A stretch of DNA of 64,000 nucleotides from Escherichia coli. GTDB lineage: Bacteria > Pseudomonadota > Gammaproteobacteria > Enterobacterales > Enterobacteriaceae. Position 1 is the stretch's first letter; every line of letters begins with the position of its first letter. This document shows, piece by piece, positions 5,224 to 63,270 of the stretch. The translations under genes were made by a program, and so were the position numbers. The notes under the pieces are model-generated. The model was not told the DNA's origin. It ran no database searches and saw only the letters and a program-made list of their open reading frames with translations. The DNA lies in assembly GCF_002854065.1 (NCBI RefSeq), contig NZ_CP024147.1; one strand, 5' to 3'.

Positions 5224-5586
5224 AGACAGTGCGCTAAAGAAGCGCAAGGCGCAGATTTTAGCAGAAAACGACCCAAATAACGGATGATCCTTAAGGAGAA
5301 AAATAATTCATATCTATCCACATTAGAAAAAATCCCATTATCTCAATTATTAGGGATGGCTTTATTTTTAACTGCATGAAAAACAAAGACAAACATCATG
5401 CTGTAAAAAGCATGATAATAAATTAAAAGCGATGTAAATAATTTATGCACAAAGTTATCCACATGACGATTTGCGAGCGATCCAGAAGATCTACAAAAGA
5501 TTTTCACGAAAAGCGGTGAAAAACTCATGTTTTTATCCTGTCTGTGGCATCCTTTACCCATAATCTGATAAACAGGCACGGACATT

Positions 5587-8373
5587 ATGGTTCAGATCCC
5601 CCAAAATCCACTTATCCTTGTAGATGGTTCATCTTATCTTTATCGCGCATATCACGCGTTTCCTCCGCTGACTAACAGCGCAGGCGAGCCGACCGGTGCG
5701 ATGTATGGTGTCCTCAACATGCTGCGCAGTCTGATCATGCAATATAAACCGACGCATGCAGCGGTGGTCTTTGACGCCAAGGGAAAAACCTTTCGTGATG
5801 AACTGTTTGAACATTACAAATCACATCGCCCGCCAATGCCGGACGATCTGCGTGCACAAATCGAACCCTTGCACGCGATGGTTAAAGCGATGGGACTGCC
5901 GCTGCTGGCGGTTTCTGGCGTAGAAGCGGACGACGTTATCGGTACTCTGGCGCGCGAAGCCGAAAAAGCCGGGCGTCCGGTGCTGATCAGCACTGGCGAT
6001 AAAGATATGGCGCAGCTGGTGACGCCAAATATTACGCTTATCAATACCATGACGAATACCATCCTCGGACCGGAAGAGGTGGTGAATAAGTACGGCGTGC
6101 CGCCAGAACTGATCATCGATTTCCTGGCGCTGATGGGTGACTCCTCTGATAACATTCCTGGCGTACCGGGCGTCGGTGAAAAAACCGCGCAGGCATTGCT
6201 GCAAGGTCTTGGCGGGCTGGATACGCTGTATGCCGAGCCAGAAAAAATTGCTGGGTTGAGCTTCCGTGGCGCGAAAACAATGGCAGCGAAGCTCGAGCAA
6301 AACAAAGAAGTTGCTTATCTCTCATACCAGCTGGCGACGATTAAAACCGACGTTGAACTGGAGCTGACCTGTGAACAACTGGAAGTGCAGCAACCGGCAG
6401 CGGAAGAGTTGTTGGGGCTGTTCAAAAAGTATGAGTTCAAACGCTGGACTGCTGATGTCGAAGCGGGCAAATGGTTACAGGCCAAAGGGGCAAAACCCGC
6501 CGCGAAGCCACAGGAAACCAGTGTTGCAGACGAAGCACCAGAAGTGACGGCAACGGTGATTTCTTATGACAACTACGTCACCATCCTTGATGAAGAAACA
6601 CTGAAAGCGTGGATTGCGAAGCTGGAAAAAGCGCCGGTATTTGCATTTGATACCGAAACCGACAGCCTTGATAACATCTCTGCTAACCTGGTCGGGCTTT
6701 CTTTTGCTATCGAGCCAGGCGTAGCGGCATATATTCCGGTTGCTCATGATTATCTTGATGCGCCCGATCAAATCTCTCGCGAGCGTGCACTCGAGTTGCT
6801 AAAACCGCTGCTGGAAGATGAAAAGGCGCTGAAGGTCGGGCAAAACCTGAAATACGATCGCGGTATTCTGGCGAATTACGGCATTGAGCTGCGTGGGATT
6901 GCGTTTGATACCATGCTGGAGTCCTACATTCTCAATAGCGTTGCTGGCCGTCACGATATGGACAGCCTCGCAGAACGTTGGTTGAAGCACAAAACCATCA
7001 CTTTTGAAGAGATTGCGGGTAAAGGCAAAAATCAACTGACCTTTAACCAGATTGCCCTCGAAGAGGCCGGACGTTACGCCGCCGAAGATGCAGATGTCAC
7101 CTTGCAGTTGCATCTGAAAATGTGGCCGGATCTGCAAAAACACAAAGGGCCGTTGAACGTCTTCGAGAATATCGAAATGCCGCTGGTGCCGGTGCTTTCA
7201 CGCATTGAACGTAACGGTGTGAAGATCGATCCGAAAGTGCTGCACAATCATTCTGAAGAGCTTACCTTGCGTCTGGCTGAGCTGGAAAAGAAAGCGCATG
7301 AAATTGCAGGTGAGGAATTTAACCTTTCTTCCACCAAGCAGTTACAAACCATTCTGTTTGAAAAACAGGGCATTAAACCGCTGAAGAAAACGCCGGGTGG
7401 CGCGCCGTCAACGTCGGAAGAGGTACTGGAAGAACTGGCGCTGGACTATCCGTTGCCAAAAGTGATTCTGGAGTATCGTGGTCTGGCGAAGCTGAAATCG
7501 ACCTACACCGACAAGCTGCCGCTGATGATCAACCCGAAAACCGGGCGTGTGCATACCTCTTATCACCAGGCAGTAACTGCAACGGGACGTTTATCGTCAA
7601 CCGATCCTAACCTGCAAAACATTCCGGTACGTAACGAAGAAGGTCGCCGTATCCGCCAGGCGTTTATTGCGCCAGAGGATTATGTGATTGTCTCAGCGGA
7701 CTACTCGCAGATTGAACTGCGCATTATGGCGCATCTCTCGCGTGACAAAGGCTTGCTGACCGCATTCGCGGAAGGAAAAGATATCCACCGGGCAACGGCG
7801 GCAGAAGTGTTTGGTTTGCCACTGGAAACCGTCACCAGCGAGCAACGCCGTAGCGCGAAAGCGATCAACTTTGGTCTGATTTATGGCATGAGTGCTTTCG
7901 GTCTGGCGCGGCAATTGAACATTCCACGTAAAGAAGCGCAGAAGTACATGGACCTTTACTTCGAACGCTACCCTGGCGTGCTGGAGTATATGGAACGCAC
8001 CCGTGCTCAGGCGAAAGAGCAGGGCTACGTTGAAACGCTGGACGGACGCCGTCTGTATCTGCCGGATATCAAATCCAGCAATGGTGCTCGTCGTGCAGCG
8101 GCTGAACGTGCAGCCATTAACGCGCCAATGCAGGGAACCGCCGCCGACATTATCAAACGGGCGATGATTGCCGTTGATGCGTGGTTACAGGCTGAGCAAC
8201 CGCGTGTACGTATGATCATGCAGGTACACGATGAACTGGTATTTGAAGTCCATAAAGATGATGTCGATGCCGTCGCGAAGCAGATTCATCAACTGATGGA
8301 AAACTGTACCCGTCTGGATGTGCCGTTGCTGGTGGAAGTGGGGAGTGGCGAAAACTGGGATCAGGCGCACTAA
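5587..8373 (+). CDS. polA: DNA polymerase I
   Basis: 928-aa ORF with 5'-3' exonuclease, 3'-5' exonuclease and polymerase motifs; DnaA-box-like ttatccaca in upstream region. Confidence 0.98.
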
Positions 8374-8520
8374 GATTCGCCTGAACATGCCCTTTTTTCG
8401 TAAGTAAGCAACATAAGCTGTCACGTTTTGTGATGGCTATTAGAAATTCCTATGCAACAACTGAAAAAAAATTACAAAAAGTGCTTTCTGAACTGAACAA
8501 AAAAGAGTAAAGTTAGTCGC

Positions 8521-8629
8521 GTAGGGTACAGAGGTAAGATGTTCTATCTTTCAGACCTTTTACTTCACGTAATCGGATTTGGCTGAATATTTTAGCCGCC
8601 CCAGTCAGTAATGACTGGGGCGTTTTTTA
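8521..8629 (+). ncRNA. spf: Spot 42 small RNA
   Basis: Sequence gtagggtacagaggtaagatgttctatctttcagacc...gccccagtcagtaatgactggggcgtttttta matches Spot 42 including its terminator. Confidence 0.93.
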
Positions 8630-8650: not shown

Positions 8651-8740
8651 CAATGCCTGATGCGCCATGTTTATCAGGCCAACGGTAGAATTGTAATCTA
8701 TTGAATTTACGGGCCGGATACGCCACATCCGGCACAAGCA
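8651..8740. repeat. REP (repetitive extragenic palindromic) elements
   Basis: gcctgatgcgc...cttatcaggcc and gccggata...catccggc palindromic units. Confidence 0.8.
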
Positions 8741-9657: not shown

Positions 9658-9900
9658 ATAGAGCGAGGACGCTAACAGGAACAATGACTCAGGATGAGGG
9701 TCAGGAGCGCCAGGAGGCGAAGACAGAGGATTGTCAGGAAGACAAACGTCCGGAGACGTAATTAAACGGAAATGGAATCAACACGGATTGTTCCGGCTAA
9801 TGGAAAAACAGGGTGTGTTGGCGGCCTGCAAGGATTGTAAGACCCGTTAAGGGTTATGAGTCAGGAAAAAAGGCGACAGAGTAATCTGTCGCCTTTTTTC
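9658..9900 (+). ncRNA. csrC: CsrC small RNA (CsrA-sequestering)
   Basis: About 245 nt with many GGA/AGGA motifs, ending in hairpin aaggcgacagagtaatctgtcgcc plus T-run; located between engB and yihI. Confidence 0.85.
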
Positions 9901-9968
9901 TTTGCTTGCTTTCTGTTAGATTCCGCCGCAAATCTATACTGAATAAAACGGCTAAAAGACGAACCATT

Positions 9969-12102: not shown

Positions 12103-12200
12103 TTGCCTGATGCGCTACGCTTATCAGGCCTACAAAACCTGTTGAAAATATTGCTTTTGTAGACCGGATAAGGCGTTCACGCCGCATCCGGCATGAACAA
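12103..12200. repeat. REP elements
   Basis: Palindromic gcctgatgcgctacgcttatcaggcc / gccggataaggcg...catccggc units. Confidence 0.8.
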
Positions 12201-16654: not shown

Positions 16655-16725
16655 CTGCACCATGATGTGAATGTTGCACCAATATAGTGCTTCAATGGAA
16701 ACATTAAGCACCATATTGGTGCAAT
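16655..16725. promoter_or_regulatory. NtrC enhancer sites upstream of glnA
   Basis: Repeated TGCACC-N-GGTGCA-like dyads (tgcaccatgatg, tgcaccaatatagtgc, agcaccatattggtgca). Confidence 0.75.
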
Positions 16726-16874
16726 GACCTTTGGATAACCCTTTTTATGCTCCGTGAAAGCGATCACAAAGGGACTCTGCAATACTTGTTTGCGGAGGAT
16801 GTTTGTGATCCTGTTTTGTAGTGCGATTAATCCGTGTACAATAACGCGCTATTTCTAATGCCTGAGGCAAAGTT

Positions 16875-18698
16875 GTGATCGAAAAATTGCGTAATATCGC
16901 CATCATCGCGCACGTAGACCATGGTAAAACCACCCTGGTAGACAAGCTGCTCCAACAATCCGGTACGTTCGACTCTCGTGCCGAAACCCAAGAGCGCGTG
17001 ATGGACTCCAACGATTTGGAGAAAGAGCGTGGGATTACCATCCTCGCGAAAAACACCGCTATCAAATGGAATGATTACCGTATCAACATCGTTGATACCC
17101 CGGGGCACGCCGACTTCGGTGGTGAAGTTGAACGTGTAATGTCCATGGTAGACTCAGTGCTGCTGGTGGTTGACGCATTTGACGGCCCGATGCCGCAAAC
17201 GCGCTTCGTAACCAAAAAAGCGTTTGCTTACGGCCTGAAGCCGATTGTTGTTATCAACAAAGTTGACCGCCCTGGCGCGCGTCCTGATTGGGTTGTGGAT
17301 CAGGTATTCGATCTGTTCGTTAACCTCGACGCGACCGACGAGCAGCTGGACTTCCCGATCGTTTACGCTTCTGCGCTGAACGGTATCGCGGGTCTGGACC
17401 ACGAAGATATGGCGGAAGACATGACCCCGCTGTATCAGGCGATTGTTGACCACGTTCCTGCGCCGGACGTTGACCTTGACGGTCCGTTCCAGATGCAGAT
17501 TTCTCAGCTCGATTACAACAGCTATGTTGGCGTTATCGGCATTGGCCGCATCAAGCGCGGTAAAGTGAAGCCGAACCAGCAGGTTACTATCATCGATAGC
17601 GAAGGCAAAACCCGCAACGCGAAAGTCGGTAAAGTGCTGGGCCACCTCGGTCTGGAACGTATCGAAACCGATCTGGCGGAAGCTGGCGATATCGTAGCGA
17701 TCACGGGCCTGGGCGAACTGAATATTTCTGATACCGTTTGCGACACGCAAAATGTGGAAGCGCTGCCGGCACTCTCCGTTGATGAGCCGACCGTTTCTAT
17801 GTTCTTCTGCGTTAACACCTCGCCGTTCTGCGGTAAAGAAGGTAAGTTCGTAACGTCTCGTCAGATCCTGGATCGTCTGAACAAAGAACTGGTACACAAC
17901 GTTGCGCTGCGCGTAGAAGAAACCGAAGACGCCGATGCGTTCCGCGTTTCTGGTCGTGGCGAACTGCACCTGTCTGTTCTTATCGAAAACATGCGTCGTG
18001 AAGGTTTTGAACTGGCGGTATCCCGTCCGAAAGTAATCTTCCGTGAAATCGACGGTCGTAAACAAGAGCCTTACGAAAACGTGACGCTGGACGTTGAAGA
18101 ACAGCATCAGGGTTCTGTAATGCAGGCGCTGGGCGAACGTAAAGGCGACCTGAAAAACATGAATCCAGACGGTAAAGGCCGCGTACGTCTCGACTACGTG
18201 ATCCCAAGCCGTGGTCTGATTGGCTTCCGTTCTGAGTTCATGACCATGACTTCCGGTACTGGTCTGCTGTACTCCACCTTCAGCCACTACGACGACGTAC
18301 GTCCGGGTGAAGTGGGTCAGCGTCAGAACGGTGTACTGATCTCTAACGGTCAGGGTAAAGCGGTAGCGTTCGCGCTGTTCGGTCTGCAGGATCGCGGTAA
18401 GCTGTTCCTCGGTCACGGTGCAGAAGTTTACGAAGGTCAGATTATCGGTATTCATAGCCGCTCTAACGACCTGACTGTAAACTGCCTGACCGGTAAGAAA
18501 CTGACCAACATGCGTGCTTCCGGTACTGACGAAGCCGTTGTTCTGGTTCCGCCTATCCGCATGACTCTGGAACAAGCTCTGGAGTTCATCGATGATGACG
18601 AACTGGTAGAAGTGACTCCGACCTCTATCCGTATTCGTAAACGTCACCTGACGGAAAACGATCGTCGTCGCGCCAACCGCGCACCGAAAGACGATTAA
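16875..18698 (+). CDS. typA: Ribosome-associated translational GTPase BipA/TypA
   Basis: 607-aa ORF with [10 protein letters not shown]1 motif, EF-G-like domains; GTG start. Confidence 0.97.
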
Positions 18699-18715
18699 TT
18701 TCGTTTTTTAGTCAT

Positions 18716-18748
18716 AAAAAACCTGCCAGCGATGGCAGGTTTTTTTTT
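18716..18748 (+). terminator. Rho-independent terminator of typA
   Basis: Hairpin acctgccagcgatggcaggt followed by T9. Confidence 0.8.
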
Positions 18749-18914
18749 GCCTGTCGTGAGCGCACACCAATGCGAGTATCTCCCTTATAAGTCTGTGGTT
18801 ACGTCAATAGAGAGCTTTGTCACAATTATCTGCAAAGTCATACGCCGTTAATTGCTTTCTTTTTTGGCGTAAGCGTAAGATGCTTCATCTGGTTTAAACC
18901 AAAAGGATTAAACA

Positions 18915-39063: not shown

Positions 39064-39540
39064 TATTTACGTTCCCTGAAATAAAGGAGGCCCTACGCTT
39101 TCCAAAAGGAATACGTATATAGAGAAATATAAAGTGTGCACTTTCGAATTTTTAATCCAACTTCAGCAGGCCGATGGATAGTATCCCGCCGCATAATATG
39201 AGTAAATCCGCTGATTTCCTGGAACGTGAGGAATATAACAATAGTGCCGTTTTTAACTAAATATCGTAAAAAATATTAGATATGATTCACGCTGACTCAT
39301 AAGCCACAAATATAAATAATGTTTAGACAAATTATCTGAGACATTTAAACATTCACAAAATCATTAAAGAATGATTTTTTATTCACAAGATTTATTTTAC
39401 CTACTAATATGTGCCTTACGCCGCAAAATTTATCCTTCACTCTGCTTTATATTGTCACGACTTCACGACATATCCGCGCTCATCACAAACCCGCCCCGCT
39501 ATTACAATTAACGTAAATATTTTTTCATGGAGTCCGATTA

Positions 39541-39694
39541 ATGGCAGCTCTTACTGCAAGCTGTATTGACCTGAATATTCAGGGCAATGGCACTTATTCC
39601 ATTCTGAAACAGTTAGCGACAATGGCGTTACAAAACGGTTTTATCACCGACTCACACCAGTTCCTGCAAACCCTGCTGCTGCGCGAAAAAATGC
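39541..39694 (+). pseudogene. frvA: frvA 5' fragment (PTS fructose-like EIIA), truncated by IS1 and on opposite strand from frvR fragment
   Basis: Translation MAALTASCIDLNIQGNGTYSILKQLATMALQNGFITDSHQFLQTLLLREKM then IS1. Confidence 0.75.
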
Positions 39695-39749
39695 GGTGAT
39701 GCTGCCAACTTACTGATTTAGTGTATGATGGTGTTTTTGAGGTGCTCCA

Positions 39750-40025
39750 GTGGCTTCTGTTTCTATCAGCTGTCCCTCCTGTTCAGCTACTGACGGGGTG
39801 GTGCGTAACGGCAAAAGCACTGCCGGACATCAGCGCTATCTCTGCTCTCACTGCCGTAAAACATGGCAACTGCAGTTCACTTACACCGCTTCTCAACCCG
39901 GTACGCACCAGAAAATCATTGATATGGCCATGAATGGCGTTGGATGCCGGGCAACCGCCCGCATTATGGGCGTTGGCCTCAACACGATTTTCCGCCATTT
40001 AAAAAACTCAGGCCGCAGTCGGTAA
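39750..40025 (+). CDS. insA: IS1 InsA
   Basis: Identical 91-aa product. Confidence 0.95.
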
Positions 40026-40447
40026 CCTCGCGCATACAGCCGGGCAGTGACGTCATCGTCTGCGCGGAAATGGACGAACAGTGGGGATACGTCGGGGCTA
40101 AATCGCGCCAGCGCTGGCTGTTTTACGCGTATGACAGGCTCCGGAAGACGGTTGTTGCGCACGTATTCGGTGAACGCACTATGGCGACGCTGGGGCGTCT
40201 TATGAGCCTGCTGTCACCCTTTGACGTGGTGATATGGATGACGGATGGCTGGCCGCTGTATGAATCCCGCCTGAAGGGAAAGCTGCACGTAATCAGCAAG
40301 CGATATACGCAGCGAATTGAGCGGCATAACCTGAATCTGAGGCAGCACCTGGCACGGCTGGGACGGAAGTCGCTGTCGTTCTCAAAATCGGTGGAGCTGC
40401 ATGACAAAGTCATCGGGCATTATCTGAACATAAAACACTATCAATAA
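39944..40447 (+). CDS. insB: IS1 InsB
   Basis: Identical 167-aa product. Confidence 0.93.
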
Positions 40448-40604
40448 GTTGGAGTCATTACCGGGACGTATTACTCCATTCTGGATAGCGACGGCGATAA
40501 AAAACACGGTGATGATACTGATGACCGTTACGGCGCACGCGTTCGCTTTAAATACTTCTTCTGATGAAGGCGCGGTGCTGGATATTTTCCGGCACCGCAA
40601 CTCA

Positions 40605-40928: not shown

Positions 40929-41753
40929 TTACAGCGCCAGCGCACTGGCTAGTGGTGTAACGCCGAAGCGCTTGCCGAGCGCTATCAACTCTTCACGGCT
41001 GATGGTCTGTTTCATGCCGCCCATCGAATAAATCTTCACTAATACTTGTGCTGATTTTTCTGCGGTGTCGATTAAACCGAATGTTTCATCCAGCGTCGGT
41101 CCGGAACCGAACACACCGTGGAAGGGCCACAACACCAGCGAATGTTTCTGCATCTCTTGTGCGGTCGCCTGGCCGATTTCGTCCGTGCCGGGCACCATCC
41201 ACGGCAGAATGCCAACGCCATCCGGGAATACCACCAGACACTCGGTGCTGCCTTCCCACAGTTGGCGAGTAAAGACCGCGGTGTCGTTTTCCAGTACATA
41301 GGTGAGGGCGATCAGGTTGGTGGCGTGGCAGTGCATGATCACCCGATCTTTACCGTTGGTGGCTTTAATGCGCTCGCAGTGGGAGAGAAAGTGAGCCGGA
41401 AGTTCAGAAGTTGGAACGGCTTCGTTGGTTAACCCCCAGAGAATATGGTAGCCCGCGCCGTCGCTGTCGACTTTTACGACGCCTAAGTTAGCTGCAGGAT
41501 CAAGCTGGACGTTACGGAAGAATTTGCCGGAGCCGGTGACAATAAACGGCGTATTTGCCAGTAAAGGCATGGGCTGGCTGAGCGGAATATAGCGCGGTTG
41601 TGGGTGGAAGTTGTCGTGATAAAGCGCGATATCGGCGTCATCCAGGCGCAGCGTCAGGTTGCCGCCGTTGCGCTCGTCCCAGCCTTTCAGCCAGGCATCG
41701 GTGGTGGCTTTGATCATTCCCTGGACAAACCAGGACTGGGTAATGTTTTGCAT
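40929..41753 (-). CDS. rhaD: Rhamnulose-1-phosphate aldolase
   Basis: Start chosen at [32 protein letters not shown] (274 aa). Confidence 0.95.
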
Positions 41754-41789
41754 GTTCTGTGTTCCTGTAAATTCGGTGTTGTCGGATGC

Positions 41790-42195
41790 ACGACCCGTAG
41801 GCCGGATAAGGCGCTCGTGCCGCATCCGGCAATCAATGCCTGATGCGACGCTGTCGCGTCTTATCAGGCCTACAACTATTGCCGACCTGTAGGCCGGATA
41901 AGGCACTTGTGCCGCATCCGGCAATCAATGCCTGATGCGACGCTGTTGCGTCTTATCAGGCCTACAACTGTTGCCGACCTGTAGGCCGGATAAGGCACTT
42001 GTGCCGCATCCGGCAATCAATGCCTGATGCGACGCTGTCGCGTCTTATCAGGCCTACAACTATTGCCGACCTGTAGGCCGGATAAGGCACTTGTGCCGCA
42101 TCCGGCAATCAATGCCTGATGCGATGTCGCGTCTTATCAGGCCTACAACTGTTGCCGACCTGTAGGCCGGATAAGGCACTTGTGCCGCATCCGGC
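41790..42195. repeat. BIME/REP tandem array in rhaD-rhaA intergenic region
   Basis: About 4.5 tandem units containing gtaggccggataaggcacttgtgccgcatccggc and gcctgatgcgacgctgtcgcgtcttatcaggcc palindromes. Confidence 0.9.
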
Positions 42196-42200
42196 AGTGT

Positions 42201-45213
<3,013 letters not shown>

Positions 45214-50979: not shown

Positions 50980-51065
50980 GGAGTGTAGGCCTGATAAGAC
51001 GCTATCAGCGTCGCATCAGGCATCCTGCTCAAATGCCGGATGCGGCGTAAACGCCTTATCCTGCC
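50980..51065. repeat. REP elements
   Basis: gcctgataagacgc...gcgtcgcatcaggc and gccggatgcggcg palindromes. Confidence 0.8.
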
Positions 51066-51079
51066 TACAAATGCGGAGT

Positions 51080-56047: not shown

Positions 56048-56150
56048 TGCCTGATTCGCTTCGCTTATCAGGCCTACGTGAATTCTGCAATTTATTGAAT
56101 TTACAAACTTTTGTAGGCCGGATAAGGCGTTCGCGCCGCATCCGGCATTG
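56048..56150. repeat. REP elements
   Basis: gcctgattcgcttcgcttatcaggcc and gccggataaggcgttcgcgccgcatccggc palindromes. Confidence 0.8.
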
Positions 56151-63157: not shown

Positions 63158-63270
63158 CGTGATGCCGGATGCGGCGTGAACGCCTTATCCCGCCTACACA
63201 AAATGGCATTGGCTCGTAGGCCTGATAAGACGCGTAAGCGTCGCATCAGGCGATCAGCATCAGGCAATCG
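63158..63270. repeat. REP elements
   Basis: gccggatgcggcgtgaacgccttatcc and gcctgataagacgcg...cgcatcaggc palindromes. Confidence 0.8.

Follow-up and report, generated by a model that had tools for sequence, protein, structure and literature searches.

The window (the whole 64,000-nucleotide stretch of E. coli DNA analysed here) carries the L-rhamnose genes rhaB, rhaA and rhaD on its minus strand, and most of the spacer between the rhaA stop codon (42201-42203) and the rhaD start (41753, minus strand) is occupied by a tandem array of REP palindromes. This spacer, 41754-42200, spans 447 bp and is composed of a unique 43-nt segment, nine palindromes and the four bases gtgt. The genes were assigned with NCBIfam models, and the rhaD call is further supported by the RefSeq annotation of a record identical to the window. 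The features of the locus, in order of position, are as follows.

40929..41753, minus strand: rhaD, rhamnulose-1-phosphate aldolase (NCBIfam NF002963, 474.5 bits; N-terminus MQNITQSW), downstream of the array in the rhaBAD transcript
41754..41796, minus strand: rhaD leader, unique 43 nt, left unpaired by the predicted fold of the mRNA; its Shine-Dalgarno sequence, AGGAA, precedes the ATG by 8 nt
41797..42196, no strand assigned: the whole BIME-2-type array of nine REPs, orthologue of EcoCyc REP299a-i of K-12
41797..41831, plus strand (GTAG foot on the plus strand): y REP 1, with loop GGCGCTCGTGCC, unlike the other four y REPs; RNA hairpin of -19.5 kcal/mol
41837..41873, minus strand (GTAG foot on the minus strand): z2 REP 1, the long 36-37-nt z form; hairpin of -21.9 kcal/mol
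41889..41923, plus strand: y REP 2; hairpin of -20.0 kcal/mol
41929..41965, minus strand: z2 REP 2, with loop variant GCTGTTGCG; hairpin of -21.1 kcal/mol
41981..42015, plus strand: y REP 3, from REP regular expression, sequence and fold
42021..42057, minus strand: z2 REP 3, from REP regular expression, sequence and fold
42073..42107, plus strand: y REP 4, from REP regular expression, sequence and fold
42113..42146, minus strand: z2 REP 4, whose inner stem has lost 3 bp; hairpin weakened to -13 kcal/mol
42162..42196, plus strand: y REP 5, the constant REP, which none of the alleles examined lacks
42201..43460, minus strand: rhaA, L-rhamnose isomerase (NCBIfam TIGR01748, 829.4 bits; C-terminus ...ILSRRG*), upstream of the array in the transcript
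43457-44926, minus strand: rhaB (NCBIfam equivalog model)

Open reading frames that overlap the array, for example 41598-41843 on the plus strand or the one at 40929-41924 extended to a TTG start, were dismissed as products of mechanical ORF listing.

Structure of the repeat array

A sequence-only reading of this DNA had proposed a tandem BIME/REP array in the rhaD-rhaA spacer, built from about 4.5 copies of a unit of about 90 bp that comprises two REP-type palindromes. Tandem Repeats Finder, decomposition into REPs and the gene models bear out this description. At 41791-42196, Tandem Repeats Finder reported one tandem array with a period of 92, 4.4 copies, 96% matches, 0% indels and a score of 749, confirming the periodicity expected at 41.7-42.3 kb; a separate repeat search returned start-to-start distances of 92, 92 and 89, the shortest interval being due to the loss of 3 bp from the fourth z REP (GCGACGCTGTCGCG to GCGATGTCGCG). 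Within 41797-42196, nine palindromes follow one another in alternating orientation, iY-Z-iY-Z-iY-Z-iY-Z-iY, which can be written as y-(z2-y)x4. These were detected with a variable-length regular expression, which found 20 REPs in the whole 64-kb window; a fixed-length REP pattern gave no match in the window, and a default-seed repeat search reported no inverted repeats in the array because the REP stems are imperfect, folding being the approach that revealed them. REPs are extragenic imperfect palindromes of 30-40 nt that carry a conserved GTAG at their foot. All nine elements match GCC[G/T]GATGCG...TTATC[C/A]GGCCTAC with 0 mismatches, each folds to between -13 and -22 kcal/mol, and all are extragenic, falling after the rhaA stop codon and before the start of rhaD.

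The five y REPs are of the GCCGGATG type and alternate strictly with four long z REPs of the GCCTGATG type, which have a long GACGCTGTCGCGTC centre and can also be described as the GCCTGATGCGACGC...GCGTC type. Tail-to-tail neighbours are joined by the 5-nt linker ATCAA and head-to-head neighbours by a linker of 15 nt. Differences among the copies at a few positions (ctat/ctgt and cgctc/acttg), pointed out at the outset, are real and correspond to an A/G alternation in the linker and to a loop variant in the first y REP: the head-to-head linker variants aactAttg and aactGttg alternate in the order A,G,A,G, and the loop reads GGCGCTCGTGCC in the first y REP vs GGCACTTGTGCC in the other four. Judged from the repeat sequences, the A,G,A,G order fits a putative duplication of a 184-bp double unit. 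The 3-bp deletion in z2 REP 4 is a strain-specific allele (identity to the query reaches >=99% in only 4 of 5,435 records) and is the sole strain-specific feature of the array.

The periodicity of the array lies far beyond chance, as the units are near-identical and the predicted fold of the spacer RNA as a whole reaches -236.5 kcal/mol, or z = -11 relative to 100 shuffles. Repeats of this kind are nonetheless prone to be collapsed or mis-expanded during assembly, and it is pertinent that a 400-bp array exceeds the length of short reads and that a short-read assembly of a cryptic-clade Escherichia breaks there. For the array described here such an artefact is extremely improbable: the same nine-REP array recurs in finished K-12 genomes produced by many laboratories, the copies are distinguished by unit-specific differences, and the 1.2 kb that was queried (41400-42600) is 100% identical to the chromosome-level record of E. 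coli strain 100416 (NZ_CM128593.1; human stool, The Gambia).

Class of the element and its proposed ligands

There is nothing new about the array, which is already annotated in K-12 as REP299a-i and classed as BIME-2. Under this EcoCyc name it has been described as 'located within an operon (rhaBAD)', as the only one of eight highlighted REP regions inside an operon, as lying <=15 nt from its upstream gene, as consisting in K-12 of RAYT-associated REPINs predicted by RAREFAN, and as showing raised exonuclease-protected coverage under SDS and copper stress (bioRxiv 10.1101/2024.07.17.603846). The K-12 RefSeq feature table shows no REP features at the locus.

The BIME classes are distinguished by their REPs, linkers and copy number. 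BIME-1 elements pair y with z1, are single-copy and have a long L linker, frequently with an IHF site, while BIME-2 elements pair y with z2, form multiple tandem copies with a short S linker and differ in copy number from strain to strain (Ton-Hoang 2012, PMC3333891). By its sequence, the rha array is of the BIME-2 type, as it is composed of y and long-z REPs with short linkers and without an L linker: the y and z2 REPs alternate in inverted orientation, with the z half aligning to the Z2 half of the Rfam model RF02564; the linkers measure 5 nt and 15 nt; and the tandem copies, 4.4 units here, vary in number between strains. The label z2 as we use it rests on the labelling of Qian et al. 2015, who designated the near-identical long z of REP325 as Z2, and on the table of Sutormin et al. 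2019, since usage of z1 and z2 is inconsistent; Messing 2012 and Nunvar 2010, for example, name identical yafM-flanking z REPs differently. The K-12 yaaX-yaaA element has a long z together with an L linker.

Two DNA-binding proteins had been proposed as ligands of such arrays, gyrase and IHF. Gyrase binding is supported at the K-12 counterpart of the locus by the cleavage sites compiled by Sutormin et al. 2019, whose Table DS3 lists 'BIMEs2 3543085-3543486, 401 bp, rhaA>-rhaD>' with four sites in the presence of ciprofloxacin, two with rifampicin + ciprofloxacin, one with microcin B17 and 0 with oxolinic acid; across the genome, cleavage sites are over-represented in BIME-2 elements, mainly within y REPs (PMC6379681). 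IHF binding, on the other hand, does not hold for this class, as the documented IHF site belongs to the BIME-1 L linker, which is absent from the tandemly repeated rha array. L-type linkers were recovered as positive controls in the same window (28503-28537 and 56078-56112), and ATTCAATnnATTG-bearing L linkers, also present in K-12 yaaX-yaaA, look quite unlike the linkers of the rha array. The sole IHF-like strings in the array are copies of AATCAATGCCTGA, which occurs once per unit and lies one mismatch from WATCARNNNNTTR; these could be taken to mark an IHF-binding BIME (RIP/RIB, a BIME-1-type element), but one-mismatch matches number 148 in the 64-kb window, or 2.3 per kb, which is the background frequency, and BIME-1 elements are single-copy (Ton-Hoang 2012). 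We consequently assign this possibility a negligible probability.

A further candidate identity comes from Rfam, in which RF02564 (naRNA4) gives four matches above the gathering score of 59.5, at 64.1-76.6 bits, all on the strand antisense to rhaBAD.

41800-41870, plus strand: naRNA4 match
41892-41962, plus strand: naRNA4 match
41984-42054, plus strand: naRNA4 match
42076-42143, plus strand: naRNA4 match

The Y-l-Z2 repeats of REP325 yield naRNAs, and many REPs are transcribed (Qian et al. 2015), which raises the prospect that the rha units are naRNA4-type small RNA genes whose products are nucleoid-associated and bind HU as those of REP325 do. However, the antisense orientation of the matching strand is not accompanied by any promoter-like site on that strand between 40800 and 43000; the rhaBAD-sense strand scores only 50.1-53.5 bits on RF02564, below threshold; the tail-to-tail linker, at 5 nt, is shorter than the roughly 13 nt of the model (by 6 nt in the alignment); and some 40-45% of the E. 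coli genomes sampled are without the array. RF02564 is in effect a model of the y-z2 BIME-2 unit, so that any such unit will match it, and the four matches reflect the content of the model rather than sRNA genes. A naRNA4-type function is accordingly very unlikely at this locus, and the four 'naRNA4' sRNA genes antisense to rhaBAD that automated Rfam annotation would produce are not for use at face value.

Copy number in E. coli and related species

To survey the spacer in the species at large, we used a population set of 5,426 complete E. coli genomes, from which two evenly spaced samples (39 and 59 genomes) were drawn and the number of units, n, deduced from match spans, and we read twelve alleles base by base. 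A 51-nt linker query proved unsuitable for counting copies, giving 88-90% matches at other loci too, so match spans were used instead. Among the alleles read and the spans sampled, spacer length equals 82 + 92n bp, with n = 0, 1, 2, 3, 4 or 6, as represented by the following strains.

n=0, 1 REP: strains 789 and AVS0282
n=1, 3 REPs: EDL933
n=2, 5 REPs: Ecol_542
n=3, 7 REPs: J6
n=4, 9 REPs: K-12 and the window under study
n=6, 13 REPs: 23CRST025

K-12 thus has the same nine-REP array as the window, and other strains differ. In the sample of 59, taken in even steps down the ranking, n=0 was found in 16 genomes, n=0 with an insertion in 11, n=1 in 10, n=2 in eight, n=3 in one, n=4 in 12 and n=6 in one; proportions were similar in the earlier sample of 39. 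The insertion defines a third allele class, in which n=0 is combined with an unrelated palindromic sequence of 159 bp (L009), and which accounts for 787 of the 5,426 genomes. A second flank haplotype carries 10 extra bases beside rhaD, and its spans of 846, 938, 1030, 1122 and 1214 bp correspond to n = 0 to 4. Because n varies widely on both flank haplotypes (spans of 836-1388 on one and 846-1214 on the other), gains and losses of units must have been recurrent. The rhaD leader is conserved among the alleles examined, except on the +10-bp haplotype (L005, L006) and in alleles with the 159-bp insertion.

Roughly 40-45% of the sampled E. coli genomes possess a single y REP only, with or without the 159-bp insertion. 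The absence of the array from so many genomes indicates that its variable part is dispensable, and this part may be without selected function. One could therefore regard the whole as a selfish or neutral repeat, a REPIN/BIME cluster kept by RAYT activity or recombination, whose effects on rhaBAD are incidental. Several observations favour this view, including the frequency of n=0 alleles just described, the repeated changes of copy number on both flank haplotypes, the insertion of an IS3-family element into a z2 loop of a cryptic-clade array, and the modelling of BIMEs in the literature as non-autonomous elements. Against it, gyrase is documented to cleave the K-12 array (PMC6379681), and the stop-proximal y REP keeps its position in all alleles and from one Escherichia clade to another, which suggests constraint on that element at least: the gtgt and the y REP adjoining the rhaA stop are kept in all 12 of the E. 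coli alleles and at a cryptic-clade Escherichia locus (L019). We judge the neutral reading somewhat less probable than an even chance as an account of the whole array; for the variable part it is compatible with the explanation we prefer, and there constitutes a serious and non-exclusive alternative.

The initial description of the copy number as hypervariable, and useful for strain typing, was overstated. The locus is polymorphic between lineages, with 0-6 units, and over clonal time scales is not hypervariable: all K-12 derivatives sampled (MG1655, HB101, MC4100, MC1061, RP437 and DTU-1) have a 1204-bp span with n=4, and all O157:H7 isolates sampled have spans of 927-928 bp with n=1. Such constancy within the sampled clones is not that of a VNTR typing locus, and our literature search found no paper that uses the rhaA-rhaD spacer for typing. 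By virtue of its 92-bp steps (n = 0-6), the spacer is a simple lineage marker, and it is a likely breakpoint in short-read assemblies.

Beyond E. coli, a cross-species scan with a y-ATCAA-z2 junction query, covering one genome per species, returned matches in only three groups: Escherichia albertii, two cryptic-clade Escherichia species and two Citrobacter species. In Escherichia sp. MOD1-EC7003, an array follows rhaB-rhaA; after the rhaA stop come gtgt and a y REP, and behind these at least 13 REPs. Most units of this array have aacagttggtgaccc as their head-to-head linker and a few have minor variants of it, as compared with aactattgccgacct at the same locus in E. coli. In a further Escherichia species, at a locus other than this one (L017), some units have the ATCAA linker and others ACAAC, and the head-to-head linker is atacgtttcggtttc. 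As linkers differ by locus and lineage, the units are homogenised within each, as expected for local amplification; homogenisation of BIME units within a locus has been described by Ton-Hoang et al. 2012 (PMC3333891). The MOD1-EC7003 assembly breaks inside the array: an IS3-family element has inserted into one of the z2 loops, and two contigs stop at its end. Within the IS3 family, IS1397 targets the loops of REPs.

Proposed roles in rhaBAD expression and likeness to known systems

Neither strand of the spacer has a sigma-70-like promoter or an intrinsic-terminator-like site (0 terminator-like sites were found vs 1.9 expected), and the notion of an intrinsic terminator or an internal rhaD promoter within the spacer was rejected on these grounds. 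Having no promoter or terminator of its own, the array is most simply viewed as an internal part of the rhaBAD message. In RNA of the rhaBAD sense, individual REPs fold at -19.5 to -21.9 kcal/mol, or at -13 kcal/mol for the z2 that carries the deletion, and a z2-y pair can alternatively form one hairpin of -46.8 kcal/mol. The first REP stem starts 5 nt after the rhaA UAA on the mRNA, and the last ~50 nt of the spacer RNA, which include the rhaD Shine-Dalgarno sequence, are unpaired in the minimum-free-energy structure.

An untranslated gap of 447 bp inside an operon presents an opportunity for Rho, and Rho- or structure-dependent termination within the array could in principle attenuate transcription and partly uncouple rhaD from rhaBA. 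We consider this unlikely, since the spacer lacks intrinsic-terminator-like sites, the array is almost fully base-paired and would be a poor loading site for Rho, and rhaD is needed for growth on rhamnose, yet the spacer offers it no separate promoter-like site.

Our preferred interpretation is that of an E. coli REP/BIME-2 array whose origin, RNA-level roles and DNA-level role can be outlined as follows, and to which, taken together, we assign a probability of about 0.9. The array would be a non-coding, non-autonomous repeat that originated from a single y REP just after the rhaA stop and has grown and shrunk in whole 92-bp (z2 + y) units. Gain and loss of units might be driven by unequal recombination or slippage between units, or by RAYT/TnpA-REP, which cleaves and recombines BIMEs in vitro (PMC3333891); no RAYT gene (yafM/tnpA-REP) lies within the 64-kb window. 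Once transcribed within the rhaBAD mRNA, the REPs would form hairpins of about -20 kcal/mol, adjacent inverted REPs being able to pair into longer ones. If they behave as the REPs of malE-malF and elsewhere do, the hairpins should block 3'-to-5' exonucleases and so favour rhaBA over rhaD, stabilisation of mRNA being a general property of REPs. The stop-proximal REP may additionally stall ribosomes and damp translation of rhaA, as predicted by the 15-nt rule of Liang et al. 2015 for REP-mediated damping of upstream-gene translation, in the form given by PMC12306157; with its first stem only 5 nt after the rhaA stop, the array falls within the range of this rule. A stabilised rhaBA message, damped translation of rhaA and lowered rhaD should therefore be the effects to expect of the array, on the analogy with other REPs. 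At the DNA level, published REP biology suggests that the array acts as a transcription-independent gyrase site, not as an IHF site.

A bolder proposal is that the number of (z2 + y) units acts as a lineage-specific dial, setting the ratio of RhaB/RhaA to RhaD through mRNA decay or attenuation, or else local supercoiling at rha, and that gains and losses of units have been selected. We regard this as speculative and rather improbable. In a variant of the same idea the array might be stress-responsive, as hinted by the raised exonuclease-protected coverage of REP299 under SDS and copper.

As a discovery the array matters little, being already contained in genome-wide gyrase and 'mobilome' data sets. 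What the E. coli population does offer is a natural allele series of 1 to 13 REPs in one operon, which could serve as a ready-made test of REP number vs polar expression.

The closest known counterpart of the array is REP299a-i of K-12, with which it shares its locus, the nine REPs arranged as y-(z2-y)x4, the linkers and the A,G,A,G alternation, the 1.2-kb region being 96.8% identical overall. The two differ in spacer length (450 bp in K-12 vs 447 bp here, owing to the 3-bp deletion in the fourth z2), in the loop of the last y REP (ACTTG here vs GCTCGCG in K-12) and in a few further substitutions. REP325/naRNA4, the yjdM-yjdN BIME-2 of K-12, likewise consists of tandem y + long-z (Z2) units, although it occupies a different locus and the strand of the rha array that matches naRNA4 is antisense to the operon. 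The BIME-1 elements (RIP/RIB) have inverted y and z REP palindromes in common with the rha array, but occur in single copy with a 35-36-nt L linker containing ATTCAATnnATTG, whereas the rha array is tandem and without an L linker; two BIME-1 examples in the window, at 28469-28566 and 56049-56146, have a 35-nt L-type linker with ATTCAATnnATTG and a short 29-nt z, neither of which is found in the rha array. Finally, the REPs of malE-malF, reportedly identified as an mRNA stabiliser by Newbury et al. in 1987, resemble the rha array in placing REP hairpins between two genes of one operon, 3' of the more highly expressed segment, and differ from it in number, with two or three REPs in malE-malF and nine in the rha array.

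REP pairs elsewhere in the window and the assignment of BIME classes

Beyond the array in the rhaA-rhaD spacer, the window carries the following REP elements:

28469-28566, BIME-1-like REP pair
56049-56146, BIME-1-like REP pair
50985-51068, single pair of a long-form z and a y REP
12105-12192, further REP site
63164-63251, further REP site
8655-8683, further REP site

Both BIME-1-like pairs combine a 35-nt L-type linker containing ATTCAATnnATTG with the short, 29-nt form of z, and the second is overlapped by a match to the Rfam family ES036/CssrF (56070-56111). The 50985-51068 pair, whose tail-to-tail linker is 13 nt long, and not the rha array, gives the window's highest score against the naRNA4 model (RF02564; 78.6 bits, minus strand). 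In K-12, the yaaX-yaaA element (5555-5675; L011), which is classed as BIME-1 in the table of Sutormin (PMC6379681), joins an L linker to the long z form, so that z length alone is insufficient to distinguish BIME-1 from BIME-2. Published usage also varies, as the z REPs flanking yafM are termed z1 in some papers and z2 in others (Messing 2012, Nunvar 2010).

Variant alleles and arrays in other Escherichia genomes

In the n=1 allele of E. coli strain 38 (L013:455-630), the first REP is a hybrid in which a z2-type centre (gtaggccggataagacgcgacagcgtcgcatccggca) lies inside y-type outer stems, a composition suggesting that y and z2 units have recombined or that one type has been converted by the other. 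In Escherichia sp. MOD1-EC7003, the rhaA-proximal array comprises at least 13 REPs on one contig (L019:8950-9710) and a second contig (L020:1-1033) carries 20 further REPs built on the same unit. Both contigs stop at the end of an IS3-family element that interrupts the loop of a z2 REP, so that these counts may fall short of the full array. Escherichia sp. E1V33 also has ~12 y and z2 REPs in tandem at a non-rha locus (L017:1811-2511). The tail-to-tail linker of this array is ATCAA in some units and ACAAC in others, and its head-to-head linker, atacgtttcggtttc, is peculiar to that locus, which shows that REP-array linkers are locus-specific.

In E. coli HUSEC2011 (L009:474-632), a 159-bp, MITE-like, GC-rich element occupies the rhaD-proximal spacer in place of part of the rhaD leader, and the REP array of this allele is of the n=0 form. 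The element has long terminal inverted repeats, with a predicted fold of -103 kcal/mol (z-score -8.3), and corresponds to no Rfam family. The insertion allele, absent from the window, is found in 787 of 5,426 E. coli genomes, and a terminal stretch of ~57 nt matches 1-6 further places in 4,460 genomes.

Other features of the window and the frvA-rhaM interval

Elsewhere in the window, Rfam matches at gathering score are:

8511-8629, Spot 42
9658-9911, CsrC
16686-16793, ES222
18683-18751, STnc370
33631-33689, minus strand, SECIS_3 element

These five are common E. coli features and bear no relation to the rha array. Between frvA and rhaM lie two additional features:

39077-39774, IS1A copy
39830-40564, truncated carbohydrate-porin pseudogene

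Whereas this strain carries both in that interval, K-12 has only a 300-bp gap between frvA and rhaM.
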